Sequence record: PV204681
Length of the DNA: 64,000 nucleotides
Origin: Escherichia phage vB_EcoM_JQD51
Strand: one strand, 5' to 3'
The notes beneath the pieces were generated by a model. It was not told the origin of the DNA. It saw only the letters and a list, made by a program, of their open reading frames with translations, and ran no database searches. Each line of letters begins with the position of its first letter. Position 1 is the stretch's first letter. Positions 1,550-63,855 of the stretch are shown here, piece by piece. A program made the translations under genes and the position numbers.

Positions 1550-2635
<1,086 letters not shown>

Positions 2636-2636
<1 letters not shown>

Positions 2637-2935
2637 TATTTTATTCCTAAGAAAATTTCAAGAATACGAATGTTATGCTCGCGCCGGTCTTTATTAATTT
2701 CAGCAACGTTTTTATTAATTGACGTACTTCTAACGTTTGAAGAAATAAATTTAATCATATGACTTTTGAGTTGTTGCAAATCCAACCCTTTTTCTTTAGC
2801 AGCTTTACGAAGAGCTTTACCTGCTTCATCTAGTGCCTTTGCTGCATCTTTGTCATAATTGCCGAGTGACATTCCACGACAGATATCAATATACTCATCA
2901 GACCGTTTGATGTAATTCTCTAGTAATGTTTTCAT
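2636..2935 (-). CDS. hypothetical protein (99 aa)
   Basis: ORF track; GAGGAAA SD; early promoter immediately upstream. Confidence 0.5.
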
Positions 2936-2963
2936 TTAGATTTCCTCAATTATCCATAGGAGC

Positions 2964-2993
2964 ATTATACTCTGCTCCTGAGAGTTTGTAAAC
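2964..2993 (-). promoter_or_regulatory. early promoter (GTTTAC / TATAAT) within inverted repeat
   Basis: Plus strand attata -N18- gtaaac; -10 sits in IR ggagca...tgctcc; upstream of ORF 2636..2935. Confidence 0.45.
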
Positions 2994-3217
2994 TATTTTA
3001 CTAAAGATTCAATATACTCGTGAAGAGCTTTAGTCGCTACTGCCCACTTATTCTGATATTCATTTTTCAGATTAGCACGAGACTGAACTAACAATCGGTC
3101 ATTAGTCGGAGGCAAAGATTCTAATCGTTGAATCTGGCGCCCATAAATCATAGCCGCCATTTCAGATTCATAGATAAGCCCTTTAATGTATTCATGTTGT
3201 TCTTTAGTCATTGGCAT
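2993..3217 (-). CDS. hypothetical protein (74 aa), pseT.1 position
   Basis: ORF track; GAGGA SD. Confidence 0.5.
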   Translation of the reverse strand: MPMTKEQHEYIKGLIYESEMAAMIYGRQIQRLESLPPTNDRLLVQSRANLKNEYQNKWAVATKALHEYIESLVK

Positions 3218-4401: not shown

Positions 4402-5535
<1,134 letters not shown>

Positions 5536-5584: not shown

Positions 5585-5994
5585 TACTTTTTCTTATGTT
5601 GGATATTCCAAGGCGGGTTGAACTTTTTGATAAAAAGCGGTTCTTCAAGGTCCATTGTTGCGATGGTCATTGAACCAAGTTCGTTGGTGACTGAAAGGTC
5701 AAAACATTGGCGGGCCCAGAATTCAACCTTTTTGCCTTGCATTAAGGCATCCAAAATCATAAGTGATTTTCTTGAATCTGAAGTCTGGTCTTTTCGATTT
5801 ATGGCTGTTCGATAATAGTTAATGCGTTTCTTTAAATTCTTGGTTTTACCAATATACACAAGTTCGTCATCTATAGCAATAGCGTATATGACATTTTTCT
5901 TATTAGGGACATCAACTGTTTTAATTGTTGCATCTTCTAATAGCTCCAATTCTGTATATTTAATAAAGGAATATTCGGCGGCAATATCTTTCAT
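5584..5994 (-). CDS. denA: endonuclease II (GIY-YIG)
   Basis: 136 aa; GIY-YIG motif (VIYAIAI...LVYIGKTKNLKKRINYY); between rnlA and nrdB as in T4. Confidence 0.8.
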   Translation of the reverse strand: MKDIAAEYSFIKYTELELLEDATIKTVDVPNKKNVIYAIAIDDELVYIGKTKNLKKRINYYRTAINRKDQTSDSRKSLMILDALMQGKKVEFWARQCFDLSVTNELGSMTIATMDLEEPLFIKKFNPPWNIQHKKK

Positions 5995-6002
5995 AATAAA
6001 GT

Positions 6003-6016
6003 GGGACCGAAGTCCC
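6003..6016 (-). other. UUCG-tetraloop stem-loop between nrdB and denA
   Basis: Minus-strand GGGAC-UUCG-GUCCC; no T-run. Confidence 0.4.
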
Positions 6017-6020
6017 GTCC

Positions 6021-7160
6021 TTAGAAATATTTTTTGTATGAATTGATTACATTTTGGTCTACATCATTATCAATTTGTGCGACAAGATAAGAACTGATTT
6101 CAACTTCCTGAGGAGCTGCTTGAACTAAATCAGAGTTCAGATATTCACGAATCCAAGGATACGGATGCTTGGTCGGAGCATCAGTGATTGGGCATGGCAA
6201 ACCACACTGTTTCATACGAGACACAGTCAAGTAATCAACAAAAGCACACATACTCTGCGTATTGATACCTGGGCATGTACCGTCTTTAAAGAGGTGTGCA
6301 GCCCATTCCTTCTCTTGACGGTTAACTTCCATAAAAATGTCAACTGCTTCTTGTTCACATTCTTTAGCAATTTGAACCCACTCATCGCCGTCAATACCAG
6401 ATTGAAGTTGACGAATAATGTACTGAGTACCCTTGAGGTGGAGTTGTTCGTCACGAGCAATGAACTTCATAATCTTTGCATTACCTTCCATAATTTCCAT
6501 ATTTTTATGGAAGTTGAAAGTACATGCAAATGATACGTAAAAACGAATAGCTTCCAGAGCGTTGATTACGTGCAGACAGAGGTAAAGAGAACGCATTAGT
6601 TCGTATTTAGCCTGTTTTACGCCTTCGCTAAACTCGTGATATTCTTCTAAAGCATTCTGGTAAAGGCGAGTCTTGACTAGAACATCATCGTAATATTTAC
6701 CTATTGATTCAGCTCGTTTCATGATTGCTTCGTCTAATACAATTTCATCAAATACCTTAGATGGATCCGTATAAAGATTTCGCATAATATGAGTATACGA
6801 ACGAGAGTGAATAGTTTCACTGAATGTCCATGTTGCAACCCACGTATCTAATGAAGGGTCGGAAATCAGTGCCATAAGTACCGCAGATGGGGCCCTGCCT
6901 TGGATAGAATCTAATAATGATTGATACTTAAGATTGTTTGTAAAGATGTCCTGTTGGAACTGAGGAAGCTTATTGAACTGCGCAGAGTCCAACATCAAGT
7001 TTACCTCTTCTGGGCGCCAAAAAAACGATAATTGCTTTTCGGTCAAATCTTCAAAAACTTTATGGCGTTGAATATCATAACGCGCAATACCAAGACCAGA
7101 ACCAAAGAACATCGGTTCATTCAAAACATCGACTTGTCGTGTGTTAAAAACTGTACTCAT
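6021..7160 (-). CDS. nrdB: ribonucleotide reductase beta subunit (class Ia), intronless
   Basis: 379 aa contiguous ORF; ferritin-like R2 sequence. Confidence 0.95.
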   Translation of the reverse strand: MSTVFNTRQVDVLNEPMFFGSGLGIARYDIQRHKVFEDLTEKQLSFFWRPEEVNLMLDSAQFNKLPQFQQDIFTNNLKYQSLLDSIQGRAPSAVLMALISDPSLDTWVATWTFSETIHSRSYTHIMRNLYTDPSKVFDEIVLDEAIMKRAESIGKYYDDVLVKTRLYQNALEEYHEFSEGVKQAKYELMRSLYLCLHVINALEAIRFYVSFACTFNFHKNMEIMEGNAKIMKFIARDEQLHLKGTQYIIRQLQSGIDGDEWVQIAKECEQEAVDIFMEVNRQEKEWAAHLFKDGTCPGINTQSMCAFVDYLTVSRMKQCGLPCPITDAPTKHPYPWIREYLNSDLVQAAPQEVEISSYLVAQIDNDVDQNVINSYKKYF

Positions 7161-18900: not shown

Positions 18901-19862
18901 TTTGGGGAAATCAGTTTGGTGGCGGTTCAGATACAACACGTTCTACTGTATTTGAAGTTGGTGATGAAACATCTAATCACTTTTATTCTCAACGTAATAA
19001 AGCCGGGAATATAACGTTTAGCATTAACGGTACTGTGATGCCGATAAATGTTAACGCTTCGGGCTCTTTGAACACGAACGGCGTTGCAACATTTGGTAGT
19101 TCAGTTACTGCTAATGGTGAATTCATCAGCAAGTCAGCAAATGCTTTCAGAGCAATTAGTGGTGATTACGGATTCTTTATTCGTAATGATGGTGCTAATG
19201 TCTATTTTATGCTTACTGCATCGGGTGATCAGACTGGTGGTTTTAATGGATTACGTCCTTTAGCTATTAATAATACATCCGGTCAGGTTACAATTGGCGA
19301 AGGATTAATTATTGCTAAAGGTGCTACTATAAATTCAGGTGGTTTAACTGTTAACTCGAGAATTCGTTCTCAGGGCACTAAAACATCTGATTTATATACC
19401 CGTGCGCCAACATCTGATACGGTAGGATTCTGGTCAATTGACATTAATGATTCAGCTACTTATAACCAGTTCCCGGGTTATTTTAAAATGGTTGAAAAAA
19501 CTAATGAAGTGACTGGGCTTCCATACTTAGAACGTGGCGAAGAAGTTAAATCTCCTGGTACTTTGACTCAGTTTGGTAATACGCTTGATTCTCTTTACCA
19601 AGATTGGATTACTTATCCAACAACTCCAGAAGCACGTACAACTCGTTGGACACGCACATGGCAGAAAACTAAAAATTCTTGGTCAAGTTTTGTTCAGGTA
19701 TTTGATGGTGGAAACCCTCCTCAACCTTCTGATATTGGCGCTTTACCTTCTGATAATGCAACAATCGGAAACTTGACAATAAGAGATTTCTTAAGGATTG
19801 GTAACGTCCGCATTATTCCAGACCCTGTGAATAAATCTGTTAAATTCGAGTGGATTGAATAA
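15987..19862 (+). CDS. 34: long tail fibre proximal subunit gp34
   Basis: 1291 aa; internal repeats of ~20-aa motif (R/G)G(I/L)A(E/K)IATQAETxxG; late promoter and AAGGAA SD upstream. Confidence 0.95.
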   Translation: MADIKRKFRAEDGLDAGGDKIVNVALADRTVGTDGVNVDFLVQENTVQVYDSTRGYNKGFVVLYDNRLYQAINDIVSPSGAFNLLQWRAVRTDAQWITVASGTYQLSSGESISVNTGAGNDMVFTLPNAPVDGDTVVLADIGGRTGTVKVQINASVQSILNFRGEQVRSVLMTRPRSQLVFVFSNRLWQMYIIDYGKESITVTPAAPYQAQANDFIVRRFTSAAPINITLPRNANNGDIISLVDLDKLNPLYHTIVKTFDDTTSIGEVGTHIAEGRNDSDAFFVFDAANSLWRIWEGDQKSRLRIIRADSNIRPNEEVLIFGTNNATTGTINLTLPTGILSGDTVKISMNYMRKGQTVKIKAAEGDTIASSVALLQFPKRSEYPPDAQWVSVTELEFNGTTSYVPVLELSYIEDTDSDTHYWVVQQNVPTVERVDAGSDATRARLGVIALATQAQANVDLENTPAKEVAITPETLANRTATEARRGIAKIATTAQVNQNSTASFVDDTIVTPKKLNERTATETRRGLAEIATQAETDAGLDDTTIITPKKLQARQGSETLSGIVKYVSTTSAIPAETRGAAGTNVYNKTVNNLTISPKALDQYKATYTQQGAVILAIDSEVIAGQSQSGYSHAVVTPETLHKKTSTDGRIGLIEIATQAETNAGTDYTRAVTPKTLNDRKATEGLSGIAEIATQVEFDTGTDDTRISTPLKIKTHFDSSDRTSVNSDSGLIEEGTLWNHYTLDISKANETQRGTLRVATQAESNAGTLDDVLITPKKLLGTKSTETSEGVIKVATQAETVTGTSANTAVSPKNLKWIVQSEPTWAATTVIRGFVKTSSGSITFVGNDTVGSTQNLELYEKNSYAVSPYELNRVLANYLPLKAKAADTNLLDGLDSSQFIRRDIAQTVNGSLTLTQQTNLSAPLVSSSTATFGGSVSANSTLTISNTGTATRLIFEKGPQTGTNPAQTMTIRVWGNQFGGGSDTTRSTVFEVGDETSNHFYSQRNKAGNITFSINGTVMPINVNASGSLNTNGVATFGSSVTANGEFISKSANAFRAISGDYGFFIRNDGANVYFMLTASGDQTGGFNGLRPLAINNTSGQVTIGEGLIIAKGATINSGGLTVNSRIRSQGTKTSDLYTRAPTSDTVGFWSIDINDSATYNQFPGYFKMVEKTNEVTGLPYLERGEEVKSPGTLTQFGNTLDSLYQDWITYPTTPEARTTRWTRTWQKTKNSWSSFVQVFDGGNPPQPSDIGALPSDNATIGNLTIRDFLRIGNVRIIPDPVNKSVKFEWIE

Positions 19863-49751: not shown

Positions 49752-49949
49752 ATGTTTAAACTTCCATCGTTAATCAACGCTATTAAAGGCAATAAAAAGA
49801 AAACTGCTATCGCTGCAATAGTTGTAGGTGGCATTATTTCATGGAACTTCGGGATTGCGCCATTGTTAGTTGCCCATGGTATTATAGTTCCTTCTGTTCC
49901 ATTGGATACTGTAGTTGATTTGGCCTTTGCTATTATAGGACTTGTTTAA
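49752..49949 (+). CDS. small membrane protein (65 aa) on opposite strand
   Basis: ORF track; strong AAGGAGA SD 7 nt before ATG; two hydrophobic segments. Confidence 0.45.
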   Translation: MFKLPSLINAIKGNKKKTAIAAIVVGGIISWNFGIAPLLVAHGIIVPSVPLDTVVDLAFAIIGLV

Positions 49950-50968
49950 ATCTTCGAATAACGAGATAATCTCATTTTAGCATGCAACCCACTTGAAATA
50001 TTCTGTTTCATATATTCTAAAATTTCTTGTGGTGTTGCATTTTCTTTCATTACCATATCATTCACATCCTTTGAACTCCATGGAGCTCTATCCCAGAACA
50101 TAACACGTTCGCCTGCATCTACTAATCGCTTCATACGAGCTATAGTATCCGGATGCCTAGGTTCATTATCCATCACCCATACCCGACGTTCTTTAAATGG
50201 TACCACATCTAAATCTATTGAGCCGCCTGTAATAGCGATTGCATTGGGTATGAATAAACTATCAATAGGGCCTTCCATTACCCAGACGTCTCCTTCCTTA
50301 ACACGTTCAACACCATAAATTTTTGTTGCAGACTCAAACGCTTTAATAGTGATATATTTCTGAGGAGCATCTTTACGAAGTGCACGTCCTTGGAATGACT
50401 CGGCCTTCCCGTCTTTATTAAAAATAGGAATCACTAAACGTGGTTCGGGAATCTCTTTCTTATACGTACCAGGTTGAATCTTGTTGACCAATTTAGGCCA
50501 TTCTAATGTGAACCATAATCTGTTCCATGATTCTTTAGGAATGCATCGAGACTTAACATATTTCACAATAGGATGCTCTTCAGGCAGCTTGTCCAGACGA
50601 GAACAAGACGGCAAAGAATTTATAGTCTTTTTCTCCGGTTCTGGTTTATGTTCAGGAACCTTTTCAATCTTTGGTTCCATTCTAGCTTTTTCTTTACGAA
50701 CTTCCATTAGATATTCACGATAAAGCTCTTCGTCATACTCTTTTAAGTATCCGGAAATCGTATTATGATATTGACAGTTATAGCAATGCACATTACCTGG
50801 AGTACCGCCATAATACCAACCGCGAGCTTTCATTGCATCTGTCTGGGAGTCGCCACAAACTGGACAACGAAATGTTAATTTAAATGTGCTTGAATTATTG
50901 ATTTGTCTAAAACGAGGTAGGTGAGAAAACGCACGATAAGCAAATTCATTATCTATCCATTCAGCCAT
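49946..50968 (-). CDS. 61: DNA primase gp61
   Basis: 340 aa; N-terminal zinc ribbon CPVCGDS...CYNCQ; GGAGA SD. Confidence 0.9.
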   Translation of the reverse strand: MAEWIDNEFAYRAFSHLPRFRQINNSSTFKLTFRCPVCGDSQTDAMKARGWYYGGTPGNVHCYNCQYHNTISGYLKEYDEELYREYLMEVRKEKARMEPKIEKVPEHKPEPEKKTINSLPSCSRLDKLPEEHPIVKYVKSRCIPKESWNRLWFTLEWPKLVNKIQPGTYKKEIPEPRLVIPIFNKDGKAESFQGRALRKDAPQKYITIKAFESATKIYGVERVKEGDVWVMEGPIDSLFIPNAIAITGGSIDLDVVPFKERRVWVMDNEPRHPDTIARMKRLVDAGERVMFWDRAPWSSKDVNDMVMKENATPQEILEYMKQNISSGLHAKMRLSRYSKI

Positions 50969-51007: not shown

Positions 51008-51475
51008 TCACAACTTATTAATATTTACTTTAATTCGCTTTCTTTTCTTGGAAGGAATTTGTTCTGGACCTTTATTTACGACTGCACCTGTAGTTGTTCC
51101 TGATGCAATAGCTTGAGGACTACCGCCTGAATCACCAGCAACCATATCCTCAAATAAAGGGAGTTCTTTAAATATTTCTTTCTGTTGTTCTTCCGTAATG
51201 TTATAGCGTGAAGCTACAGCACTCCAGGCAGACATCATTGAGGCCATTCCATTAAGACCTGGAACAGTGCTCATCATTCGCTTCATTGAACGAACTGAAG
51301 CATGAAAAGGTGTATACGCAGCTTTCTCTTCGGGAGTAGAAGGACGTTTAAGAACACTTCCACGTTCATCGATGATTTTGGCTTCGTATGCTTTCCATTC
51401 GGTAAAAGGTTTTTGCATTAGTCGAATAAACTTATATGCATAAACAGAATCTATTGCAGTGTTAATAATACCCAT
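51008..51475 (-). CDS. hypothetical protein (155 aa)
   Basis: Track ORF (TTG start) trimmed to ATG with GGAGG SD; basic C-terminus KKRKRIKV. Confidence 0.5.
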   Translation of the reverse strand: MGIINTAIDSVYAYKFIRLMQKPFTEWKAYEAKIIDERGSVLKRPSTPEEKAAYTPFHASVRSMKRMMSTVPGLNGMASMMSAWSAVASRYNITEEQQKEIFKELPLFEDMVAGDSGGSPQAIASGTTTGAVVNKGPEQIPSKKRKRIKVNINKL

Positions 51476-51494
51476 AGGTACCTCCTGAGTATAT

Positions 51495-51692
51495 TTAATC
51501 AATTACAAAGATTGCTTTGTCACCATTTATATCTGTGACTTCATATGTAGTGCCTTCATACTGTGGAATATTCCAAATTACACCATCATTAGCTTTTACG
51601 CTAATATGGTATTGGTGTTTTGAAACAACTTCATAATCTTCAAAACTTGTAAAAACACTAATTTTAGAACCAGTGCAAATTGCAGTAGTCAT
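51495..51692 (-). CDS. hypothetical protein (65 aa)
   Basis: ORF track. Confidence 0.45.
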   Translation of the reverse strand: MTTAICTGSKISVFTSFEDYEVVSKHQYHISVKANDGVIWNIPQYEGTTYEVTDINGDKAIFVID

Positions 51693-51693
51693 T

Positions 51694-52353
51694 TTAACCT
51701 CGATTCATAAATGCATTAAATATTTGGTCATCAACAGAAATTTCTAATTCGACTTCAATTGTTTCAGCCTTTTCTTCAGGTGGTAATTCGTATCCACACA
51801 CTACAATTTTTTCATCGATATCAAAATATACAGAAGCAATACGATTAATGTTACTTTCAGTTAAGTCTAAATCAACATCAACATCTTTTTGACCTACACT
51901 TAAAGGATAACTAATACGGGTTATTTTATTATCTTTAACAAAGAGTCCACCAACATACTCTGTACTACGTTTGAAGTTTACACGTTTCCGAATTGAAAGA
52001 TATGATACATCTTTACCGTGAGCTCGGCTCATAGGACATAATGAATAGCTAGAATATGAGATGTCAAATCCTACACCTTCAATATGAGCCAACGTGTCAT
52101 GAGTAAACCAATTATAATCATATGCCAAATCCATTATATTGTAATATGTGAAAGGCACAGGATTAACATCATACGTTGTACCTTTAAAATCTGCCCAGGC
52201 AACGATTTCGTTATCTTTAACAATTACAAAAATTACACCAATATGGTATCCGTTATTATTTTCATTCGGCGTTATATTATAACATTGTGCATTAGGAAAT
52301 TTACCATATTTAAACGGCGCGTTTTTGTGCATGTAATAAATCATATTATTCAC
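51694..52353 (-). CDS. hypothetical protein (219 aa)
   Basis: ORF track. Confidence 0.5.
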   Translation of the reverse strand: MNNMIYYMHKNAPFKYGKFPNAQCYNITPNENNNGYHIGVIFVIVKDNEIVAWADFKGTTYDVNPVPFTYYNIMDLAYDYNWFTHDTLAHIEGVGFDISYSSYSLCPMSRAHGKDVSYLSIRKRVNFKRSTEYVGGLFVKDNKITRISYPLSVGQKDVDVDLDLTESNINRIASVYFDIDEKIVVCGYELPPEEKAETIEVELEISVDDQIFNAFMNRG

Positions 52354-52639
52354 CTGTGATTTCGGTTACGATATCTTTGTTATCGAAATTAGGGTCACAA
52401 TACAAAACATAATTGTATTGCATGATACCGCCAGACTTAAGTTGTTCAACAACTTTATTAACCATATTAGGACGGTCTCGTTTAGTGATGTTCATGATAT
52501 CAGAGAAGATTTGTTGTTCAACATCTTCTTGATTTGCAGTCATTGACCACTCACAGAGGTCTTTATCATAACCTGCTGTAACTGGAGCTGGTGCACATGA
52601 TACTGCAAGTAAGATTGCTGCCAATGATAACTTTTTCAT
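52346..52639 (-). CDS. sp: Spackle-like periplasmic protein
   Basis: 97 aa (same as T4 Sp) with cleavable signal peptide MKKLSLAAILLAVSCAPAPVTA; position between 61 and 41. Confidence 0.6.
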   Translation of the reverse strand: MKKLSLAAILLAVSCAPAPVTAGYDKDLCEWSMTANQEDVEQQIFSDIMNITKRDRPNMVNKVVEQLKSGGIMQYNYVLYCDPNFDNKDIVTEITGE

Positions 52640-52667
52640 TTTAACTCCTTAGTTGATTTGATAGGAC

Positions 52668-52698
52668 TACTATACTATAGTCCATCTATAATGTAAAC
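52668..52698 (-). promoter_or_regulatory. early promoter for sp, within inverted repeat
   Basis: Plus strand actata ... gtaaac; IR taggact...agtcca. Confidence 0.4.
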
Positions 52699-52702
52699 AA
52701 GT

Positions 52703-52951
52703 TTATTCTTTTTCGCGAATAATAATTACTTGTTGAGGCTGCTGAGCAGATTTCTTTTCGGCAACGATAGACCAAATTAAAGTTCCAATCCAACCAACCA
52801 TCGTCCAGTTAAAGAGTAAAGATACAAAGAAGATTGCTGTTGTGCTTTTTGTGCCACGAATAAGTGCGATTACCCAAGGCAACATGTAAATGATGATTGA
52901 ACCAATACCTGCGATTAAAACTGCTACTGAACTAGCTACGAATAATTCCAT
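52703..52951 (-). CDS. superinfection-immunity-like membrane protein (Imm family)
   Basis: 82 aa, two TM segments; motif YMLPWVIALIRG...AIFFVSLLFNWTMVGWIGTLIWSI resembles the Imm superinfection-immunity family. Confidence 0.5.
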   Translation of the reverse strand: MELFVASSVAVLIAGIGSIIIYMLPWVIALIRGTKSTTAIFFVSLLFNWTMVGWIGTLIWSIVAEKKSAQQPQQVIIIREKE

Positions 52952-53012
52952 GTTAATTTCCTCTTGATTTGTTATGTTTATAGTATCTTATTTTAACTTT
53001 GGTGTAAACCAA

Positions 53013-53381
53013 TTAATTAAATTTGTTTAAACGTTCAATACACTGGACGTAGTTATTAGCGATTTGTTTCTGGGAAGGCTCTTTACCAGTTGTTTCAACA
53101 TAGCGAATGAATGCGATTTCAGTAGCCTGTAAGCAATGTTCTTTAACGCGTTGTTCTTTTGATAATGCTACAGTATCAGAGTCACGATAACGTTGAGCAT
53201 GGGCATCAGCTTGAATCATTCGATTACCTACAGTAACCGGGTCTTCCACTTCAACTTTAGGTTGGTTGTACTGTTTAACATTCGGATTGTAAATCAGTTG
53301 GCCAACGTTATTAGGGATAAAGCCGTGGGCACCACATCCGGTTAATCCAAATACCATTGCTAAAGCGATTAATTTTTTCAT
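53013..53381 (-). CDS. putative lipoprotein (122 aa)
   Basis: Signal peptide with lipobox LTGC. Confidence 0.5.
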   Translation of the reverse strand: MKKLIALAMVFGLTGCGAHGFIPNNVGQLIYNPNVKQYNQPKVEVEDPVTVGNRMIQADAHAQRYRDSDTVALSKEQRVKEHCLQATEIAFIRYVETTGKEPSQKQIANNYVQCIERLNKFN

Positions 53382-53441
53382 TTCAATTTCCTCTGTAGTT
53401 GATAGAAAGATAGTAACACAGTATGTGGGGCTTGTAAACAG

Positions 53442-53654
53442 TTATTTTAAACTTTTGCGAAATTTGCGTTTTTCTTGACGAATCTGTCGTTTAGTCGGAC
53501 GTACAGCAAATTTAACGAAGTCCACTTTGCCGTGTGGAAACTTTTCAGATGCTTCACAGTCCATCATTAGTTCCCATCCTTCCAGAATAAGAGCTTTCCA
53601 TTGTGTAGTTGATGCAAATTCGTATGTTGATGGTTTAAACACAGTTGAATACAT
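53442..53654 (-). CDS. hypothetical protein (70 aa)
   Basis: Track ORF trimmed to internal ATG with AGAGGA SD. Confidence 0.4.
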   Translation of the reverse strand: MYSTVFKPSTYEFASTTQWKALILEGWELMMDCEASEKFPHGKVDFVKFAVRPTKRQIRQEKRKFRKSLK

Positions 53655-53655
53655 A

Positions 53656-53847
53656 TTATCCTCTGAAATCAGCTTCAAAAACTTTCTCGTCATTAACAAA
53701 TGCTTTAACAAGTGCACTGTTCACTTCAGCGAGTTGTACAGCAACCCACTCGATTTCTTCACGGTCACCTGATAACATGATATCTTTAGTGAACATCTCA
53801 CCACTTTTAAACCAACCAATAAAAGTAACTTTAGTTAATTTGCTCAT
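53656..53847 (-). CDS. dmd: Dmd antitoxin (inhibitor of RnlA/LsoA toxins)
   Basis: Track ORF trimmed to MSKLTKVTFIGWFKSGEMFTKD... (63 aa); matches remembered T4 Dmd (...VKAFxxDxKV...RG) and its position just before gene 41. Confidence 0.65.
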   Translation of the reverse strand: MSKLTKVTFIGWFKSGEMFTKDIMLSGDREEIEWVAVQLAEVNSALVKAFVNDEKVFEADFRG

Positions 53848-54161
53848 ATTTCCTCGCAAAATGCCCATTCAGCGTGATAAACTGTAGCACCTTTAGTATT
53901 ATTCATTTGAACTACGTCTACTGGAGAAATTACTCGATAGAGACGTGGTTCACCTCCATAAGAGCGTGCTGCTCGTCCTGCATAAATCTTTGCTAAACCG
54001 ATATCTTCAGTAAAGAATACACGATCCAAGTTTTTCTTACGTCCAGTTTCAGACAGAACTCCTGTTTCCTCAGGAGGACAAAGCATGTTTTCGATGTTAG
54101 CTGAACTGCTTGAACCGTGATAAAAAATCTTAAATTCTGCTTTACAATCGATGGTTTCCAT
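53844..54161 (-). CDS. hypothetical protein (105 aa)
   Basis: ORF track; GAGGAGA SD; early promoter upstream. Confidence 0.5.
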   Translation of the reverse strand: METIDCKAEFKIFYHGSSSSANIENMLCPPEETGVLSETGRKKNLDRVFFTEDIGLAKIYAGRAARSYGGEPRLYRVISPVDVVQMNNTKGATVYHAEWAFCEEI

Positions 54162-54190
54162 TTTGTTCTCCTCTTGGTTGGTGTAAGTAC

Positions 54191-54220
54191 ATCATATCAT
54201 GCCTAGAGGAAGATGTAAAC
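54191..54220 (-). promoter_or_regulatory. early promoter upstream of ORF 53844..54161
   Basis: Plus strand atcata -N18- gtaaac. Confidence 0.45.
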
Positions 54221-54226
54221 CCCGAA

Positions 54227-54251
54227 AGGAGACCGAAGTCTCCTTTTTATT
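54227..54251. other. stem-loop immediately after gene 41 stop; plus-strand copy followed by T-run
   Basis: aggagac-cgaa-gtctcct then ttttatt on plus strand. Confidence 0.4.
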
Positions 54252-55692
54252 AAAATTTTAACTCATTGGCTAAGCTATCTAGGTCAGCTCGTGTTGCTTT
54301 GGCTTTACCTACGCGTTCCGTACGATTCACCTCTGCCTGACGCATCTGAGCACCTGCGTTTTCATTTACTGTGTTAGGTGTGTTCATGCCTTCTTGCTCA
54401 ATCTCAATCCATTTCTGGTTGCCTTTACGTACGCCCATCAGGAATTTATTCCACTTATTCTTATCACCATAACGTGATTTGATTTGTTTGATAAGTTGTT
54501 GTTCAGCTTGTGCAAGTTCTTCGGTTTCAATTACGGCCAACATGAAATCTGCCGTTGCTGGTAAACCTGCTGATTCTGCAATATCACTCATGTTCATATC
54601 CGAAGCATCCCATGCTGCACGTCCTACTTGAGCGGCAGTCCATAGAACTGTTTCAGATTCTACTGCTAATGCACGAAGTTCTTCTGCGATAGCTTTAACT
54701 AATGTGTAGCTATTTTCAGTGTAAACTCTGATACGACAAGACCCACAAATACCTAAGTAATCAACCATGATTACAGATGGCACAAAGTTCTTCTTAAGTT
54801 TTAACTCATTAAGCAATGCACGGAATGTATTAGCATTAGCTCCACCAGTAGGATACTGTTTAACTACTAAACGTCCTAATGTTGTTTTTGAACGCCATTT
54901 TTCCATCTTGGCTTTATATTCAGCATAAGATACGTTACCATCATCGATATCATCGAGTGATACGTCAAGCATGTTTGCATCTATACGCTTAGCACAAACT
55001 TCTTCAGCCATTTCCATAGAAATATAAAGAACGTTATGACCTGTTTGAAGATAATCCGCTGCAAGTGAACAAAGGCCTAAAGATTTACCAACGTTAACAC
55101 CGGCCATTAAAACGTTTAGTGTACCGGTTTCTGCACCACCTTTAGTAATTTTATTTAGAATGTTTAATTTGAACGGGACCTTACGTGCTTTGTTCAGATA
55201 AGAAAGCCAGCGTGCTTCGTAGTCTTCCATCCAGTCATGTCCAACATAACTATCAAACGAAATTGAAAGTGCTTGACGCATAATATCAGGAATAGCTCCT
55301 ACGTCAGGCATTTTCTTGTTACGTTGTTCTGGAGGTAGTTCAGCATTAGACTGAATCTCAATGATTTTGGATGTAGCATTATACATCGCTTTTTGCTGGA
55401 CATATTTCTCAGTTTCTTTAACCAACCATTCGTGGTCTTCAGGAGTATCAGCCAATTTTTCAATTAGGTCTGAAGTTCCTTTATATTCGGCTTCAGTTAA
55501 AGAACTGTTATCTAAAGCCACCTTTAATGCATTGATAGACGGCATTGCATTATATTCGTTAACGTGGCTCTTTATAATTTTAAAGACATTTTTTGCCGGT
55601 CCACGCTCAAAATACTCAGAATCCATATAAGGCCAGACCTTAGAAAAATAAGCCTGGTCATATACGAGATGAGACAAAATAATTTCTACCAC
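54250..55692 (-). CDS. 41: replicative DNA helicase gp41 (DnaB-like)
   Basis: 480 aa; Walker A MAGVNVGKS; apparent GTG start with AAGGAG SD. Confidence 0.95.
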   Translation of the reverse strand: MVEIILSHLVYDQAYFSKVWPYMDSEYFERGPAKNVFKIIKSHVNEYNAMPSINALKVALDNSSLTEAEYKGTSDLIEKLADTPEDHEWLVKETEKYVQQKAMYNATSKIIEIQSNAELPPEQRNKKMPDVGAIPDIMRQALSISFDSYVGHDWMEDYEARWLSYLNKARKVPFKLNILNKITKGGAETGTLNVLMAGVNVGKSLGLCSLAADYLQTGHNVLYISMEMAEEVCAKRIDANMLDVSLDDIDDGNVSYAEYKAKMEKWRSKTTLGRLVVKQYPTGGANANTFRALLNELKLKKNFVPSVIMVDYLGICGSCRIRVYTENSYTLVKAIAEELRALAVESETVLWTAAQVGRAAWDASDMNMSDIAESAGLPATADFMLAVIETEELAQAEQQLIKQIKSRYGDKNKWNKFLMGVRKGNQKWIEIEQEGMNTPNTVNENAGAQMRQAEVNRTERVGKAKATRADLDSLANELKF

Positions 55693-57857: not shown

Positions 57858-58757
57858 TTATTCCTCGATTACGACATCTTCATATTTAGGTATATTATAC
57901 GGCGAAGAAATTAAAGCATTAAAGTAGATGAACTCACCAAGACCTGGATGGAATACTTCTTCAGGATTTTCGAAATATTGAATCTTCGGACGTCCTTTAA
58001 GAATTTGATAGTACTCAGTTTTAGTTGGTTTAAAAATTCGAATCAGCGCTTCTTCAGGATACTTATTTCTGTCGAAGCTATTATTTGGATCGGTTATATA
58101 AAGCGGTTGGCCTAATTGAATTGCACATTCAACCACTTGTTCAAAACGATAGCACGGGTCACTAATTCGAAATGGATGAAAAATACCATCTAGATGAATA
58201 GGAGCCAAATCACCTACAAGACGCTGCATGATGGAAGGACGTATAACTTTCTGGGTTACGATAATCTTATTACCATCGGCACCAGCGTTAACCAGCACTT
58301 CCTTTTGACGTTTATTCAACACAGTAGTTTGAAGTGAACGATTAACCGACAACATATCGGTTTTTAAGAATTCGTCAATATAAAAACGTGGTTTATTAGG
58401 GTCTGCAGTGATATTGAAATTGAATTCCACATCAAAAGCGCCGTCATATCCAGTGATATCTGTGATTAGAAAATCACAATCATAATAATCAATTAATGAA
58501 TCAACCACAAATTCATTTTCAGACCAGAAATATTTACGAGTGTTATATGCGTTATCTTTATACCATAATGGAACAAACTTAAATTCTGGGAAAAGACGTT
58601 CACATTCTTTAATATCAGATGCATTACGTGGATATGTAATCACATCACCCGGATTAGCACGGTGCAAATGAAGTTGGAAGTTGCCATCCTTAAGGATAGC
58701 ATACTGTCCAGTTTCATAAGACCGCATACTCAAGATAGGTACGCGGAAAATAGCCAT
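57858..58757 (-). CDS. hypothetical protein (299 aa), candidate DNA-modification enzyme
   Basis: ORF track; TAATG coupling with gene 42; contains a DCD (DxD-like) motif; family not recognised. Confidence 0.5.
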   Translation of the reverse strand: MAIFRVPILSMRSYETGQYAILKDGNFQLHLHRANPGDVITYPRNASDIKECERLFPEFKFVPLWYKDNAYNTRKYFWSENEFVVDSLIDYYDCDFLITDITGYDGAFDVEFNFNITADPNKPRFYIDEFLKTDMLSVNRSLQTTVLNKRQKEVLVNAGADGNKIIVTQKVIRPSIMQRLVGDLAPIHLDGIFHPFRISDPCYRFEQVVECAIQLGQPLYITDPNNSFDRNKYPEEALIRIFKPTKTEYYQILKGRPKIQYFENPEEVFHPGLGEFIYFNALISSPYNIPKYEDVVIEE

Positions 58758-59473
58758 TAGTCAAGGAATCCTTTAACATAATCAAAATCACGTTCAAACA
58801 CATGGGCACTTACCATGGTATGAGTATAATCACCAACTTCTACACCACATTCGTTAGCGATATAATGAAGTAATTTTCCTTGGAGATAAAAATCCAACTG
58901 CATAACAACAGCACAGTTCTGAGAACGCATATGACAGTGGGTATAAAGCTTACCATCACGAATATAATAAGTCACTGAGTCAGTACATGGATATTCAAGC
59001 GTTTCGTCTGAATCAAGCAAAGCCTGATCAGAACTTTCTAGAATTTGGAACACAACTCTTCGAGAGTTAGGCTTCTCTTTAAGTTCTTTTAGAAGAGCTG
59101 GTAATTGGGCCACAATGCGAGGACCATAGAAAGTGTTGAAGTTCGCCGGCAAAACATCTGATTTTGGTTTAGAAATAAATTTAGCGACATTAGGATATGC
59201 CTTAAACGCTTCTTCTGCGTTGGTACCACCAGAAATCATAAACTTCCAGAAGTCTTCGGCATATTCATAAGAGATGCGGTTAATACGTGGGTCAGTCATT
59301 TTGAATGATGACGGAGTGTCAACAACTACTGTCATAGACCCAATTTCATTACAACGTCCAATACGAGAATCAGTTACGAATTCCGGGTTTTCTAAAATTT
59401 CACGATTGACTGCTTTAAATGCGGTTTGAAAATCTGCGGCTTTGATATATTTCATTGTGTTATGTTTTCCCAT
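58757..59473 (-). CDS. 42: dCMP hydroxymethylase (thymidylate synthase family)
   Basis: 238 aa; catalytic-Cys motif YPCTDSVTYYIRD aligns with T4 gp42 FMCTNTVQYLIRD; Asp in the specificity position (QLD, cf. T4 RND) implies cytosine substrate; GAGGT SD. Confidence 0.8.
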   Translation of the reverse strand: MGKHNTMKYIKAADFQTAFKAVNREILENPEFVTDSRIGRCNEIGSMTVVVDTPSSFKMTDPRINRISYEYAEDFWKFMISGGTNAEEAFKAYPNVAKFISKPKSDVLPANFNTFYGPRIVAQLPALLKELKEKPNSRRVVFQILESSDQALLDSDETLEYPCTDSVTYYIRDGKLYTHCHMRSQNCAVVMQLDFYLQGKLLHYIANECGVEVGDYTHTMVSAHVFERDFDYVKGFLD

Positions 59474-59751: not shown

Positions 59752-60912
59752 TCATTCTGGGTACCTCAAAGCGTCGTCAGAGTTAGTTATATCAATAATA
59801 GATATAGAATTTTCTGATAACCCATTTTTAGATAACTGACGTTTATAATATCTTTCACAATATGTACACGTCGTCCCGCAGATTTCATTAGCACAATCGA
59901 AATCTGGATGTTTGAACCACCTTTTTTCTAAAAAGCCATCTAACAAAGAGGTTTCAATATTTACCGTATGTGAAAACTCGGTCTCATTTTCAAGAGTGAA
60001 AATGGTCTCTAAAGGCTTCCACAATTCCAACAAATTACCTTCAAACTTTTCAGAAGCATAAGCTTCAAGAACTTTCAAAATGTAGTCTGTGCTACCTGTA
60101 CGTCCTGAAACTTTGAATTGAGTGATACCAATATCATTATAAAGTTTCAAATCTTGAGGACGAACAAAACGAGTTCTCAACCAGTTAAATGGGTCTGTAT
60201 CACGAGCTTTAATACAGTGCTGCATTGGATACCCATTTAAGGATTTGGCATCATCTACTGTAACATCGGTGCTATGGAAAATATAGCAAGAGTCACGATA
60301 ACTACAATGTGTTGTATACCCTTTACCAGCATTAGAACAGAACTCATTTACAAGAACTTCAAATATTATATTGTTCTTATTACAAAACTCTGCTGCACGC
60401 TTCAGGAAAGAAACTGAACGGTTCTTATGAATTCCGCAGCAGACCTTTTTGATATTATATTGGTCATGCAAGTATTTGATTTGAGTTACAGCATCGACAT
60501 GTAGAATTGTTGAAACTTCAATCTCAATGTCTTTATTGACTTCACGAACAATTTCCATAACAACAGGGTTAGCGATAGTAATACGCCATACGCCTATTGA
60601 CCAAAGATACTGAACATAATCCTGAATAGCTTTCTTCTTCCACTCAACTAGTTCTCTTTTTGAACCAGGATTTATCGTGTTGAGTGTATAGTTAAAGCAA
60701 ATACCTAATTCGTTACAACGTTTAACGTAATCTTCTAACATCTTTTTGTCAACGTCAGGAAGCCTAAAATCAGGTCTGGCTGCTACAAAAGCCATTTCTC
60801 TGGTAGAGCCGTATACTTCGTTTATCAAGCTATTAGGATAAGTTTTATTGAGCTCTACGATTTTATCAAGAAGAGCTAAATCAAAATTCGTTCCGATTTT
60901 AAAGGTATTCAT
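59752..60912 (-). CDS. peptidase U32 family protein (prephenate-dependent hydroxylase family)
   Basis: 386 aa; blocks ANPVVMEIVRE, EIEVSTILHV, Cys-rich EVLVNEFCSNAGKGYTTHCSYRDSC and FKVSGRTGS align with remembered U32 proteins (YegQ/RlhA: DPGLIMLVRE, EIFVHGALCMAYSGRC, LKIEGRTKS). Confidence 0.6.
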   Translation of the reverse strand: MNTFKIGTNFDLALLDKIVELNKTYPNSLINEVYGSTREMAFVAARPDFRLPDVDKKMLEDYVKRCNELGICFNYTLNTINPGSKRELVEWKKKAIQDYVQYLWSIGVWRITIANPVVMEIVREVNKDIEIEVSTILHVDAVTQIKYLHDQYNIKKVCCGIHKNRSVSFLKRAAEFCNKNNIIFEVLVNEFCSNAGKGYTTHCSYRDSCYIFHSTDVTVDDAKSLNGYPMQHCIKARDTDPFNWLRTRFVRPQDLKLYNDIGITQFKVSGRTGSTDYILKVLEAYASEKFEGNLLELWKPLETIFTLENETEFSHTVNIETSLLDGFLEKRWFKHPDFDCANEICGTTCTYCERYYKRQLSKNGLSENSISIIDITNSDDALRYPE

Positions 60913-60966
60913 TTTTGCATCTCGCGTTAATTGTTGCGATGGTTTTTGCAGGTCTTACTTAAATTA

Positions 60967-61368
60967 TTATAGATTCGGTTTATATGATTTAAATGTTTCG
61001 AATTCGCCTTTATTCATAAGAGCTTTGAATTCGTCAGGACGCATAGCTTTGTCGTCGATAATCCAATCATATACTGGTTTATGTGTTAGCAAATTATGGT
61101 ACTTCAATCCAATGTTTGCCAAGTTCTGAATCAGACTTGGGAGAATGTCAATTGCTATACGACCAGGACCGACTGACTTCATACCGCGAGCAGTGTAAAG
61201 CGTTATTGTATGCCCTGCATCATATAGGGCATTAATGGCAGACACCATTTCGACGTCTGGTTTGAAGTTCACGTAATCACGATTGTTATTCCATTCCGTG
61301 ATGCAATCATCGACATCAAAACAAAGATTAAGCATGTTTTTTACACGGTGCATTAGATTCGTTCCCAT
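60967..61368 (-). CDS. HAD-superfamily phosphatase (small)
   Basis: 133 aa; motif I FDVDDCIT (DxDx[T/V]), motif II LYTARG, motif III/IV K...IIDDKA; start may be the ATG at 61353 (TAATG overlap). Confidence 0.6.
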   Translation of the reverse strand: MGTNLMHRVKNMLNLCFDVDDCITEWNNNRDYVNFKPDVEMVSAINALYDAGHTITLYTARGMKSVGPGRIAIDILPSLIQNLANIGLKYHNLLTHKPVYDWIIDDKAMRPDEFKALMNKGEFETFKSYKPNL

Positions 61369-63038
61369 TGATGAGTGATATCGCCACCGATTGGACGATA
61401 AGAAACACCAGTTTCTTTATCAGTTAGTACCCATTTACCAGGATTTTTTGTAATCAGAGTAGCCGTTACAGGTTCTGCTACATCATAACTAATAGAGCCG
61501 TCTTGAAGTACACGGCCCATATTACGTAATTGCTTAGTCAGAAGTTCCATACCTTTATAATATGCGGCTACCGCTTTAAGTGGATTATTCTTGAAATAAC
61601 CACCTAATGCAATCCAGATAATTGCTACAGCCAAATGATGATACTCATTAAACGAACTCATCTTTCCATATTTGTAAACTAATGGATTGATGTTAATAGT
61701 CACATTACAAGTTGTTTCATCAATAGTAAACTGTCCCCAGGTCGGATTAGCATTGAATTCATCATAACCTGAAACAGCATAAAGCACTTTAGCTTCATCA
61801 TACAATTTTGGCCCGTAAATCTTGGTTTCACCAAAATATCCACGAGGGTCGATAAACTTGACTTCACCATTATCAGTAATCATAGTATTACTGAAGTTTG
61901 GGTCACCATGAATAACAGAGTACTGTCCCTGAGAACGGTTATGATAACGAATAAGGTGTTCTAAAGCTTGTTTCAGCATTGGCTTCAGACGCCCAATCTT
62001 AGTGTAGTTCACATGTGTGATTTTACCAAATGAATCAATCAATGGTTGAATACTTTCACAACGATCAATAACTTTAGTATAGAATTCTTTAGTGAAATCA
62101 CGACGAACAGTTTCAGGACTTACAAAATAAGTGTCTGTGCTGAATTTCAGTGCATCTAAAATTGCATCAACAATTTGTGGACGAGCAAGACTTGATTTGG
62201 ATTTAATATATTCAAATGCCGGCTTACCTTTAATGCGTTCCATTTCAAAGTTATTTTCATTAACAGAAACTAGCTGAGGAACTGAATCTGATTTCACTTT
62301 AAGATACCATGAAATCTCATCTTTCTGAAGAGCTCGGCCCTGTTCGGTTAATGCGAATTTAGTTACAGTTTCTTCACCAATTTCAACTGCATTAAAACTA
62401 CGATTAAGTTCACGAACTTCATGAGCTTTTTCAAGTTTAGGCATATCACCTAAATCAATTAGATTCATAAGCTCTGATTTATTGAATGCGCTGCCGTAAA
62501 GGAATTCTACGAAATCACGTCCTTTGCAGTATTCATGAATTTCCTCATCAGTAGAACCCATATAGAATTCCCAGTCTTTGAACTGATAAATTCCTACAAC
62601 ATTACCACCTGTTGAACCTACGTTAGTGATATTTTCACCGTCGAAATTATATCGACATTCGTCGCCCTTAACATAGATTGCGTTAACATTCCAAGACCAT
62701 GAACCAAAATCAGGAATAATATCACACCAGTTAACAATTACATTATGGCCGTCTAAATCTTTGTGCAATTTAGCAAGAGCATAAGCAGAACCATATGCTT
62801 CATCAACTGTACGAATAGTCACATTGAACCCTTCTTGCTCACAATAAGCTCGAACGGTTTCAGCAAATTTTGAATGAACTACTACAATAATTTCATCTGC
62901 GCCAAGGTCAGAATAAATTGTATACAAATTGCTCAGAATAGTGTCTTGTTTATAGTTAACAAGCACCTTAGGAATATGATGTGTTATTGGATACAAACGA
63001 GTTGCCAGTCCAGCACCGAGAATAACAGCTTTTTTCAT
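61353..63038 (-). CDS. bifunctional sugar-1-phosphate nucleotidyltransferase / APH-like anomeric sugar kinase
   Basis: 561 aa; N-terminal KKAVILGAGLATRLYPITHHIPKVLV (RmlA/GalU-type G-x-G-T-R-L-x-P-x-T); C-terminal HGDPNFSN...KFIDPRGYFG (HxDxxxxN catalytic loop and D of Mg site as in ChoK/APH/AmgK); GAGGACC SD. Confidence 0.8.
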   Translation of the reverse strand: MKKAVILGAGLATRLYPITHHIPKVLVNYKQDTILSNLYTIYSDLGADEIIVVVHSKFAETVRAYCEQEGFNVTIRTVDEAYGSAYALAKLHKDLDGHNVIVNWCDIIPDFGSWSWNVNAIYVKGDECRYNFDGENITNVGSTGGNVVGIYQFKDWEFYMGSTDEEIHEYCKGRDFVEFLYGSAFNKSELMNLIDLGDMPKLEKAHEVRELNRSFNAVEIGEETVTKFALTEQGRALQKDEISWYLKVKSDSVPQLVSVNENNFEMERIKGKPAFEYIKSKSSLARPQIVDAILDALKFSTDTYFVSPETVRRDFTKEFYTKVIDRCESIQPLIDSFGKITHVNYTKIGRLKPMLKQALEHLIRYHNRSQGQYSVIHGDPNFSNTMITDNGEVKFIDPRGYFGETKIYGPKLYDEAKVLYAVSGYDEFNANPTWGQFTIDETTCNVTININPLVYKYGKMSSFNEYHHLAVAIIWIALGGYFKNNPLKAVAAYYKGMELLTKQLRNMGRVLQDGSISYDVAEPVTATLITKNPGKWVLTDKETGVSYRPIGGDITHQWERI

Positions 63039-63079
63039 GTTGTGGTCCTCATTGGTAAGTAGGAGTATTGTACACTATT

Positions 63080-63223
63080 CTAGTTAAAGCATTCATACTT
63101 TGCTTGTAGTCCAATCATAATCCATCCAATTACAAGTGTTGGAATCATTACTGGAGCCGTTAAGCTCCAGTAGATAGTCATGACAAGCATCAATAGTAAA
63201 AGTCCTATTGTTATTGCTTTCAT
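63080..63223 (-). CDS. small hydrophobic peptide (47 aa)
   Basis: Hand-read: MKAITIGLLLLMLVMTIYWSLTAPVMIPTLVIGWIMIGLQAKYECFN; ATGA overlap with the isomerase stop. Confidence 0.3.
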   Translation of the reverse strand: MKAITIGLLLLMLVMTIYWSLTAPVMIPTLVIGWIMIGLQAKYECFN

Positions 63224-63855
63224 TGTTCGCCTCGTAACATGGCACCTAGTGCGCCGCCAGGGTGGAACTTAAGGAAGTCATTAGAGGTAAATCCACGCTC
63301 AGACGAAAGGTTGATAGCAAACGTATCGATAAGCGCTAACAACAATGTAGTGGACATAGTCGGAGCCAGAGAATTCTCATCAACCTCTACTGCGATGCCT
63401 GTACAGAAAGAGTAATCAAAAAGGGCTTCATTTTCTTGTGGAATGTCTGGGTTACAATGCAACAGAATCTGTTTGACGTTCGGACGAATCATTTTAAGAT
63501 GCTTAGCCACGCCTATCATTTCTTCAGTTTTACCAGAACGACTAATATGAATCAACACATCATTAGGCGCAATGAATCCTGCATCACCGTGAGAATAATG
63601 CCCAGTGTTCAAGTACATACTCGGGATACCGAGTGAAGCAAATGTCTCAGAAGCTTTAGTTGCAATATTAGCATTCTTACCAACACCTGTAATAATTACT
63701 CGGCTTTCATAATTACTAAGTCCCGGACGTCGAAGAGTTTCTAGAATAGCATTATAACGAGCAGGGTTTTGACTAATTACTTTGGCCATATCGGCCAAAG
63801 AAGAAGATTGTTTTATGATTGCGTTAATAGCGATAGTAATAGGAGTAGTTTTCAT
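63220..63855 (-). CDS. SIS-domain sugar-phosphate isomerase, KdsD/KpsF-type arabinose-5-phosphate isomerase (no CBS domains)
   Basis: 211 aa; TGVGKNANIATKASETFASLGIPSMYLNTGHYSHGDAGFIAPNDVLIHISRSGKTEE aligns with the KdsD SIS core (GxGKSGxIGxKxAATFASTG...HGDLG...SxSGE). Confidence 0.8.
   Translation of the reverse strand: MKTTPITIAINAIIKQSSSLADMAKVISQNPARYNAILETLRRPGLSNYESRVIITGVGKNANIATKASETFASLGIPSMYLNTGHYSHGDAGFIAPNDVLIHISRSGKTEEMIGVAKHLKMIRPNVKQILLHCNPDIPQENEALFDYSFCTGIAVEVDENSLAPTMSTTLLLALIDTFAINLSSERGFTSNDFLKFHPGGALGAMLRGEQ

Follow-up and report, generated by a model that had tools for sequence, protein, structure and literature searches.

A nine-gene early cluster between genes 61 and 41 of Escherichia phage vB_EcoM_JQD51, probably the RB69-type form of the T4-like anti-toxin island

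Genes and early promoters between genes 61 and 41

We examined a 64,000-nucleotide stretch of the genome of Escherichia phage vB_EcoM_JQD51 (sequence record PV204681; this whole stretch is henceforth the window, and positions refer to it), concentrating on the interval 51008-54161 that separates the primase gene 61 (49946-50968) from the helicase gene 41 (54250-55692). An earlier note on this DNA had described the interval as a nine-gene island concerned with interaction with the host, and we indeed recover nine consecutive open reading frames (ORFs) there, all on the minus strand and each with homologues. With a probability of about 0.85, we take the island to be the form that an early accessory cluster, carried by T4-like phages between gene 61 and gene 41, has in phages of the RB69 type (Mosigvirus). 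As such it is real, coherent and essentially already known; the RB69 annotation and the published idea of an 'anti-TA island' (TA, toxin-antitoxin; PMC9391042) leave little to be added. What is new here is confined to a lead towards a miniature ADP-ribosyltransferase (ART) encoded by the homologue of RB69ORF040c (040c), a second lead in the likeness between the 61.1 protein and the capsid protein gp23, and four early-type promoters in the four gaps of the cluster. The gene identities and order, the promoters, the folds and the homologies given below come from the present analysis. The nine genes are as follows (aa, amino acids; functions are named after T4 or RB69 homologues):

51008..51475, minus strand: 61.1-long (61.1L), 155 aa, phrog_2086; helical N-terminal domain, gp21-type cleavage motif LFE109/D (the slash marks the site), gp23 N-arm-like segment, basic tail
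51495..51692, minus strand: 033c (homologue of RB69ORF033c), acidic protein of 65 aa, phrog_3249
51694..52332, minus strand: adfA (61.2), anti-DarT factor A, 212 aa, Pfam AdfA PF23813
52346..52639, minus strand: sp (Spackle), 97 aa including a 22-aa signal peptide, Pfam T4_Spackle PF25676 and PDB 6x6o
52703..52951, minus strand: imm, superinfection immunity, 82 aa, Pfam Imm_superinfect PF14373 and phrog_1039; predicted inner-membrane protein
53013..53381, minus strand: imm.1, predicted lipoprotein (lipobox LTGC, Cys16), DUF5481, named as in the RB69 annotation
53442..53654, minus strand: tifA (61.4), inhibitor of the ToxN endoribonuclease, 70 aa, Pfam DUF7279, 100% identical to RB69 TifA
53656..53847, minus strand: dmd, antitoxin against the RnlA/LsoA endoribonuclease toxins, 63 aa, Pfam PF17587 and PDB matches
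53844..54161, minus strand: 040c, 105 aa, predicted Arr-like mini-ART fold (AlphaFold2 model, family profile), phrog_2110

The start codons were revised from the positions of ribosome-binding sites (RBSs) and from the RB69 annotation, resulting in starts at 51475 for 61.1L, 52332 for adfA, 53654 for tifA and 53847 for dmd. Pfam and PHROGs searches assigned the products to the families Spackle, Imm_superinfect, DUF5481 (imm.1), Dmd, DUF7279 (61.4) and AdfA (61.2). The inventory in the earlier note, namely Spackle, Imm, a lipoprotein, Dmd and five other ORFs, agrees with this, the five being 61.1-long, RB69ORF033c, 61.2, 61.4 and RB69ORF040c; its label of 'unassigned' is wrong for 61.2 (AdfA) and 61.4 (TifA), the functions of which are published. 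Likewise, its reading of the locus as a host-interaction island is borne out by Sp, Imm, Dmd, AdfA and TifA, all of which are known host- or defense-directed factors.

Each of the four intergenic gaps contains a promoter of the T4 early type, GTTTACA-17-TA(T/C)nnT, with a GAGG-type RBS about 20 nt downstream. When the strict form of this pattern (GTTTACA-N17-TAYNRT) is applied to the window it yields 12 exact matches, all on the minus strand, versus 0.11 expected, and four of the 12 lie within this 3.2-kb interval. These pattern matches, together with a hairpin that we read from the sequence, are:

54228..54243, minus strand: G+C-rich hairpin GGAGAC-TTCG-GTCTCC followed by TTT, just past the gene 41 stop
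54191..54220, minus strand: early-type promoter for 040c-dmd-tifA (GTTTACA-17-TATGAT)
53410..53439, minus strand: early-type promoter upstream of imm.1
52980..53009, minus strand: early-type promoter upstream of imm
52669..52698, minus strand: early-type promoter upstream of sp

The strict matches on the minus strand of the window are at 838, 2964, 4370, 5555, 31562, 32071, 42795, 46679, 52669, 52980, 53410 and 54191, and the twelve provide a map of its likely early promoters. Since the stop codon of 040c overlaps the start codon of dmd (ATGA) and tifA starts 1 nt past the dmd stop, 040c, dmd and tifA, in which 040c is the first cistron, form one tightly coupled early operon. The genes downstream of sp are also tightly packed or overlapping and, accordingly, the sp promoter probably drives sp-adfA-033c-61.1L, and possibly gene 61 beyond them. 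The four promoters would in this manner define four transcription units, namely 040c-dmd-tifA, imm.1, imm, and sp-adfA-033c-61.1L. The hairpin at 54228..54243 is identical in RB69 and is likely to be either a terminator or a stem-loop ahead of the early promoter. Another terminator-like hairpin, within 040c (54059-54076), was discarded as spurious: it lies inside conserved coding sequence, and the count of such hairpins is below the chance expectation.

Anti-toxin and exclusion genes in comparison with RB69, T4 and JS98

A megablast search with a 3.4-kb query brought up RB69 together with 153 other records, at about 98% identity and with at least 80% of the query covered, which identifies the source of the window as an RB69-like Mosigvirus. 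The corresponding region of RB69 (NC_004928, 17.3-20.9 kb) agrees with it in gene content, order and orientation, and is annotated as 61, 61.1, ORF032c, ORF033c, 61.2, sp, imm, imm.1, 61.4, dmd, ORF040c, ORF041c and 41. The individual proteins are 95-100% identical between the two phages, with Imm and TifA (gp61.4) at 100%. RB69 differs in possessing a 429-bp ORF041c cassette, made up of a 124-aa ORF and its downstream early promoter, that is cleanly absent from the window (54162-54249, as compared with 5762-6278 of the extracted RB69 stretch). The junction of this cassette is a microhomology at the RBS (GGAGAACA), and the same short form without the cassette is seen in phage TH58. The RB69 record further splits the 155-aa 61.1 into ORF032c and 61.1, whereas the gene is intact in the window and in TH58. 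The split reflects a frame change near codon 51 (2609-3075 of the extracted RB69 stretch versus 51008-51475 of the window), which is either a sequencing error or a mutation of the laboratory strain.

The region was termed the 'anti-TA island' in a study of T4 that also named its neighboring genes as further candidates (PMC9391042, eLife 2022). The T4 island and the window share the backbone 61 - 61.1 - adfA - sp - tifA - dmd - 41 and an early promoter upstream of the dmd operon, and, to judge from the homologues, the same anti-toxin functions. The window goes beyond this backbone in that imm-imm.1 lies between sp and tifA, 033c is present, 61.1 is extended by an N-terminal domain of 100 aa, and the putative mini-ART precedes dmd; searches of the complete T4 genome recovered no homologue of either 040c or 033c anywhere in it. 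Relative to T4, 040c would have come to head the dmd-tifA operon, and imm-imm.1 would have been gained from the interval between genes 42 and 43. A comparison that includes JS98 shows that sp, dmd, tifA and 61.1 constitute a stable core of T4, JS98 and RB69. At the place of adfA, JS98 has orf30 (4758-5192 of the extracted JS98 stretch), whose last 14 residues are 93% identical to those of AdfA. The remainder of orf30 is unrelated to AdfA, i.e. the last 14 adfA codons are fused to an unrelated ORF, which suggests the replacement of a cassette with conservation of its 3' junction. The clean absence of the 429-bp cassette, the microhomology at its RBS junction and the adfA remnant in JS98 thus all fit a process of cassette shuffling at promoter/RBS junctions.

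For Dmd, TifA, AdfA, Sp and Imm, the functional assignments derive from published experiments on T4 or RB69 proteins. Dmd is recovered by PF17587 at 72 bits against a cutoff of 27, has PDB matches to 5i8j (e-value 1e-36) and 5hy3_B (e-value 5e-17), and is 95-98% identical to Dmd of the RB69 type. TifA, the gene of which adjoins dmd, matches DUF7279 with an e-value of 6e-20 and has a central basic cluster (RPTKRQIRQEKRKFRK). The RB69 TifA, which is identical to the protein from the window, inhibits ToxN in experiments and is reported to be more potent than T4 TifA (PMC9391042). AdfA matches PF23813 over positions 1-211 of 211 (e-value 3e-118, 393 bits). The suggestion in the earlier note that the neighbors of dmd are anti-toxin candidates had therefore already been realized experimentally for TifA and AdfA, and had been proposed for the rest of the region in the above study. 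By analogy with these proteins, there would be a cytoplasmic front in the opening minutes of infection, where small proteins bind toxins of the host TA defenses and so neutralize them: RnlA/LsoA would be the target of Dmd, ToxN that of TifA, and a DNA ADP-ribosyltransferase of the DarT type that of AdfA.

Spackle, Imm and probably Imm.1 would act on a second front, at the envelope. Spackle matches PF25676 over positions 1-96 of 96 (e-value 1e-42) as well as PDB 6x6o (e-value 1e-39) and 7cn6, and is 66% identical to T4 Spackle. Its N-terminus is hydrophobic at residues 4-24, and the mature T4 chain in 7cn6 aligns from residue 23. T4 Spackle is a periplasmic inhibitor of the gp5 tail lysozyme, the mechanism of which has been solved (PMC7677548), and the Spackle of the window would correspondingly inhibit the gp5 lysozyme of superinfecting phages. 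Imm is recovered by PF14373 (56.9 bits against a cutoff of 27.9) and by phrog_1039 (e-value 1e-30), and has two hydrophobic segments, at residues 1-34 and 40-59 (Kyte-Doolittle). Together, probably, with the lipoprotein Imm.1, it would block the entry of superinfecting phage DNA. Imm is 100% identical to the RB69 protein and 64% identical to T4 Imm, so there is no sign of a changed function. Imm.1 is 32% identical to T4 imm.1, and its gene travels together with imm. The earlier note had surmised that the immunity function may have moved, and the pair is indeed displaced relative to T4: it is found between sp and 61.4 here, but between genes 42 and 43 in T4. The relocation is genuine, yet it is the known and already annotated arrangement of RB69. 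No second imm copy was found within the 64-kb window, and JS98 has neither imm nor imm.1 between genes 41 and 61. Past gene 42 (58757-59473), at 59752-63855, the window encodes U32 peptidase-like, nucleotidyltransferase (NTP-transferase) and SIS-domain proteins; their genes represent the RB69-type sugar (DNA hypermodification) module and occupy the place that imm and imm.1 have in T4.

Candidate activities of 040c and 61.1

The 040c protein yields a confident AlphaFold2 model (pLDDT 84.7) with an ART fold. A profile search of 1.84 billion representative sequences recovered 222 relatives, many of which are embedded as domains in larger proteins, the longest of 3,924 residues. It is through a wider profile built from this search that the link to Arr becomes visible: the Pfam Arr-ms domain is matched by 16 of 30 aligned members of the 040c family and by 33 of 49 multidomain relatives (best e-value 1.8e-9), relatives that the 040c profile recovers at e-values of 1e-20 to 1e-33, and in a search of PDB with the broad family profile Arr is the only match (e-value 0.026). 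The invariant residues of the family are H15, G16, E38, F49, T51, A57, Y60, G69 and G70. In the profile alignment H15 corresponds to H19 of Arr, the NAD-binding histidine, and F49 to Y49 of Arr. The catalytic or NAD-binding triad of Arr consists of H19, Y49 and D84. No acidic residue of 040c aligns with the Arr acid, and E103 shows conservation in the T4-like subgroup alone.

The family comprises 140 clusters at 60-97% identity and occurs in at least 609 sequenced records of Straboviridae, including phages of Escherichia, Klebsiella, Acinetobacter, Aeromonas and Vibrio. T4 is an exception, with tblastn and profile searches of all six frames of its complete genome retrieving no homologue. The absence from T4 may explain why we found no study in the literature on RB69ORF040c or on Arr-like ARTs in T4-like phages; a survey of viral NAD and ADP-ribose enzymes lists Arr-family ARTs in actinobacterial and Sinorhizobium phages only (PMC9503650). 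The gene lies in the interval between genes 41 and 61 in RB69, JS98 and Acinetobacter phage 133. Between the window and phage 133 the 040c proteins are 73% identical, versus 57% for the gp41 helicases, and this greater conservation than that of the replicative helicase suggests that 040c has a conserved target. Domains of the 040c type are also found inside giant polyvalent proteins in combination with ART-PolyVal, DUF7178, Toprim, GNAT, NUDIX, CHAP or portal domains; one such relative combines a lambda-type portal, the 040c-type ART and a 2H/Acb1-like phosphoesterase. Polyvalent proteins are injected or transferred along with the invading DNA (PMC5512222).

Relative to Arr (PF12120; PDB 2hw2, 9iaf), 040c is about 40 residues shorter, has a Phe in the place of Tyr49 and a C-terminal third that cannot be aligned; it is, moreover, phage-encoded and predicted to be expressed early. 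AcrIF11 (PDB 6kyf) is likewise a phage-encoded mini-ART and acts as an anti-CRISPR, though nothing points to a CRISPR target for 040c. Tpt1/KptA (PDB 9ld3) has an N-terminal RNA-binding lobe that 040c lacks, aligns over 75 of 179 residues, and shows no sequence match. From these observations we infer that 040c is a minimal ART of the Arr clade made at the very start of infection. Most likely, it would modify a conserved target in the host as infection begins, at the expense of NAD+. If so, such an enzyme would be produced from the very first early transcript along with two anti-toxins, and unrelated phages and conjugative elements would have put the same module to further use in polyvalent proteins that are injected. 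Annotation pipelines sometimes label homologues of 040c as a rifampicin-resistance enzyme; as this bears on the safety screening of therapeutic phages, the real substrate of 040c should be determined.

Many T4-like phages conserve the long form of 61.1 (112 clusters), of which T4 and JS98 retain no more than ~54 residues at the C-terminus (18966-19130 in T4, NC_000866). A search of PDB with the family profile recovered T4 gp23 alone (e-value 6e-6; residues 49-101 of gp23 aligned), and among all the ORFs of T4 the profile matches only 61.1 and gp23. The shared segment corresponds to the site at which gp21 cleaves gp23 during maturation (LTE/AE) and the first ~35 residues of mature gp23*, with 14 of 27 core residues identical in the region aligned with gp23 66-92. 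E109 of 61.1, which is at least 90% conserved and has a hydrophobic residue at -2, conforms to the gp21-type (L/I/V/M)-x-E motif and aligns with the gp23 maturation site. In the window this motif (IFKELPLFE109) is internal, following a helical domain of ~100 aa, and thus lacks the N-terminal position of a capsid-targeting sequence (CTS). An AlphaFold2 model predicts the helical domain with confidence and without a fold match, and the gp23-like tail as disordered. The short T4 gp61.1, on the other hand, begins with MKTFKEFIKE/D, which has 7 of 10 residues in common with the CTS of the internal proteins IPII and IPIII (MKTYQEFIAE/A), and its first 7 residues are those of IPI. CTS residues 4, 7, 8 and 10 matter for targeting and processing (PMC9026906), and all are kept in T4 gp61.1. 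The CTS-like motif is confined to ipII, ipIII and 61.1 in the whole T4 genome, and the start of JS98 61.1 resembles it roughly.

The 61.1 family thus shares the gp21 site with gp23, and its T4 member the CTS-like start with the internal proteins, although the gene is found in the early replication-gene region and not beside the ip genes. As a speculation, 61.1 might be a prohead-targeted, gp21-processed peptide, or else a decoy for factors that recognize the gp23 N-terminus. Its most likely partners would be the prohead protease or core, or a factor of the latter kind. A decoy could be aimed at the gp21 protease, or else at abortive-infection systems that sense the capsid; Lit and CmdTAC, for instance, are both triggered by gp23 (PMC3014915, PMC11618068). 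The literature that we consulted, in which virion proteomics data were not searched, contained no link of gp61.1 to gp23 or to capsid targeting. The likeness to gp23 and to the CTS leads to a concrete hypothesis on 61.1, which the annotation of T4 continues to list as hypothetical, and may connect to the way in which phages cope with defenses triggered by their own capsid protein. The earlier note had regarded any match of its unassigned ORFs to structural proteins as speaking against an island of this kind. Such a match does exist, over a 50-residue segment of gp23, but since 61.1 would be a short mimic and not a structural gene, it does not overturn the island interpretation.

Alternatives to a selected island

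A number of observations run counter to the picture presented above. Every activity assigned in the window is carried over from T4 or RB69 homologues. AdfA has Arg and not the neutralizing His at codon 164: a His at this position binds and neutralizes DarT1, whereas the Arg of the RB69 type is reported not to neutralize it, and readily mutates to His under selection (PMC11257639/PMC11825919). Given this R164 allele, the AdfA of the window is probably adapted to some DarT that differs from E. coli DarT1. For 040c, a Foldseek search of the model against PDB gave no significant match (best e-value 0.71), and the sequence itself has no direct match in Pfam (e-value up to 1), NCBIfam or PDB, the Arr-ms domain included. 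Further, the Tyr of the H-Y-E/D triad is Phe in 040c, and the catalytic acid cannot be placed. The association of 040c with the anti-toxin operon is lineage-specific, since other Straboviridae, such as Klebsiella phage Matisse and Aeromonas phage 25, carry the gene in the vicinity of hoc, 30.x and srd, a long way from dmd. The neighborhoods of mini-ARTs in distant phages have no shared partner gene, and no Dmd-like neighbor was detected outside the RB69 and JS98 lineages. Lastly, the clustering of the genes may mirror where insertions are tolerated instead of a shared function. The interval would then be a recombination-tolerant 'hyperplastic' slot, in which promoter-plus-ORF cassettes pile up harmlessly between essential replication genes and the co-occurrence of their products is a by-product. 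This accords with the presence of a separate early promoter for every unit, the clean loss of the ORF041c cassette at an RBS microhomology, the placement of imm/imm.1 elsewhere in T4 and of the mini-ART elsewhere in Slopekvirus and Aeromonas phages, and the unrelated ORFs that replaced adfA in JS98 while keeping its last 14 codons. It fits less well with the conservation, across T4, T2, T6 and RB69, of the dmd-tifA adjacency and of three independent anti-toxin factors in the interval, or with the stable core of sp, dmd, tifA and 61.1. The two accounts are not mutually exclusive, and we regard the slot as a sole explanation to be a serious possibility, albeit one that we lean against.

Different objections apply to the individual candidates. 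If 040c were a true Arr enzyme it would ADP-ribosylate rifamycins, and thereby protect the host RNA polymerase on which all phage transcription depends. Arr is, after all, the sole solved family that the sequence profile reaches, some GenBank records name the homologues 'rifampin ADP-ribosyl transferase', and phage Arr-family ARTs have been discussed as possible small-molecule modifiers (PMC9503650). However, the match covers only about the first two thirds of Arr-ms (profile positions 1-67 of 99); 040c is shorter than Arr by ~40 residues; Y49 of Arr is replaced by the invariant Phe and D84 has no clear counterpart; the domain occurs in polyvalent proteins, a context argued to imply host macromolecules as targets (PMC5512222); and rifamycins, we would think, are rarely met by enteric hosts. 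We therefore view a rifamycin-modifying activity as very improbable. In the case of 61.1, the protein could instead be a head-internal component like IPI-IPIII, i.e. targeted to the prohead core, cleaved by gp21 and packaged in the virion, and hence no cytoplasmic member of the island. The CTS-like start of T4 gp61.1 with its key residues, the restriction of that motif to ipII, ipIII and 61.1, and the conservation of the cleavage motif in at least 90% of the family speak for this. Set against it are the internal position of the motif in the long form from the window, past the ~100-aa domain, the location of the gene within an early transcription unit, and the lack of any paper tying 61.1 to capsid targeting among those found (with the above limit regarding virion proteomics). 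A peptide that is packaged and injected would, furthermore, still be a host-interaction factor, as IPI* is. On balance we consider a purely head-internal 61.1 to be rather unlikely. The same caution extends to our own more ambitious proposal, in which both proteins would be new kinds of T4-type effector, 040c as the smallest known active ADP-ribosyltransferase (96-105 aa, Arr clade), directed at a conserved host component or defense factor, and 61.1 as a mimic of the propeptide, cleavage site and N-arm of gp23 that is either packaged and injected or acts as a decoy: that both parts are correct is unlikely, and the conjunction is offered as a tentative lead. The RB69-type island itself, irrespective of these two members, remains a textbook case of the manner in which T4-like phages concentrate counter-defense and exclusion genes.

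Among the products for which we can only predict activities, i.e. 040c, 61.1L, 033c and Imm.1, the acidic 033c protein belongs to a very narrow family, with only 4 protein clusters among 5.8 billion, that is also present in JS98. A relationship to the N-terminus of AdfA by paralogy was rejected: pairwise BLAST gave an e-value of 0.002, but the hhalign probability is 0.4% (e-value 0.15), and the GTTY motif that the two have in common is not conserved in JS98. Finally, in a region that is otherwise encoded on the minus strand, a lone plus-strand ORF for a hydrophobic protein of 65 aa (RB69ORF029w; 49752-49949) lies between genes 56 and 61.

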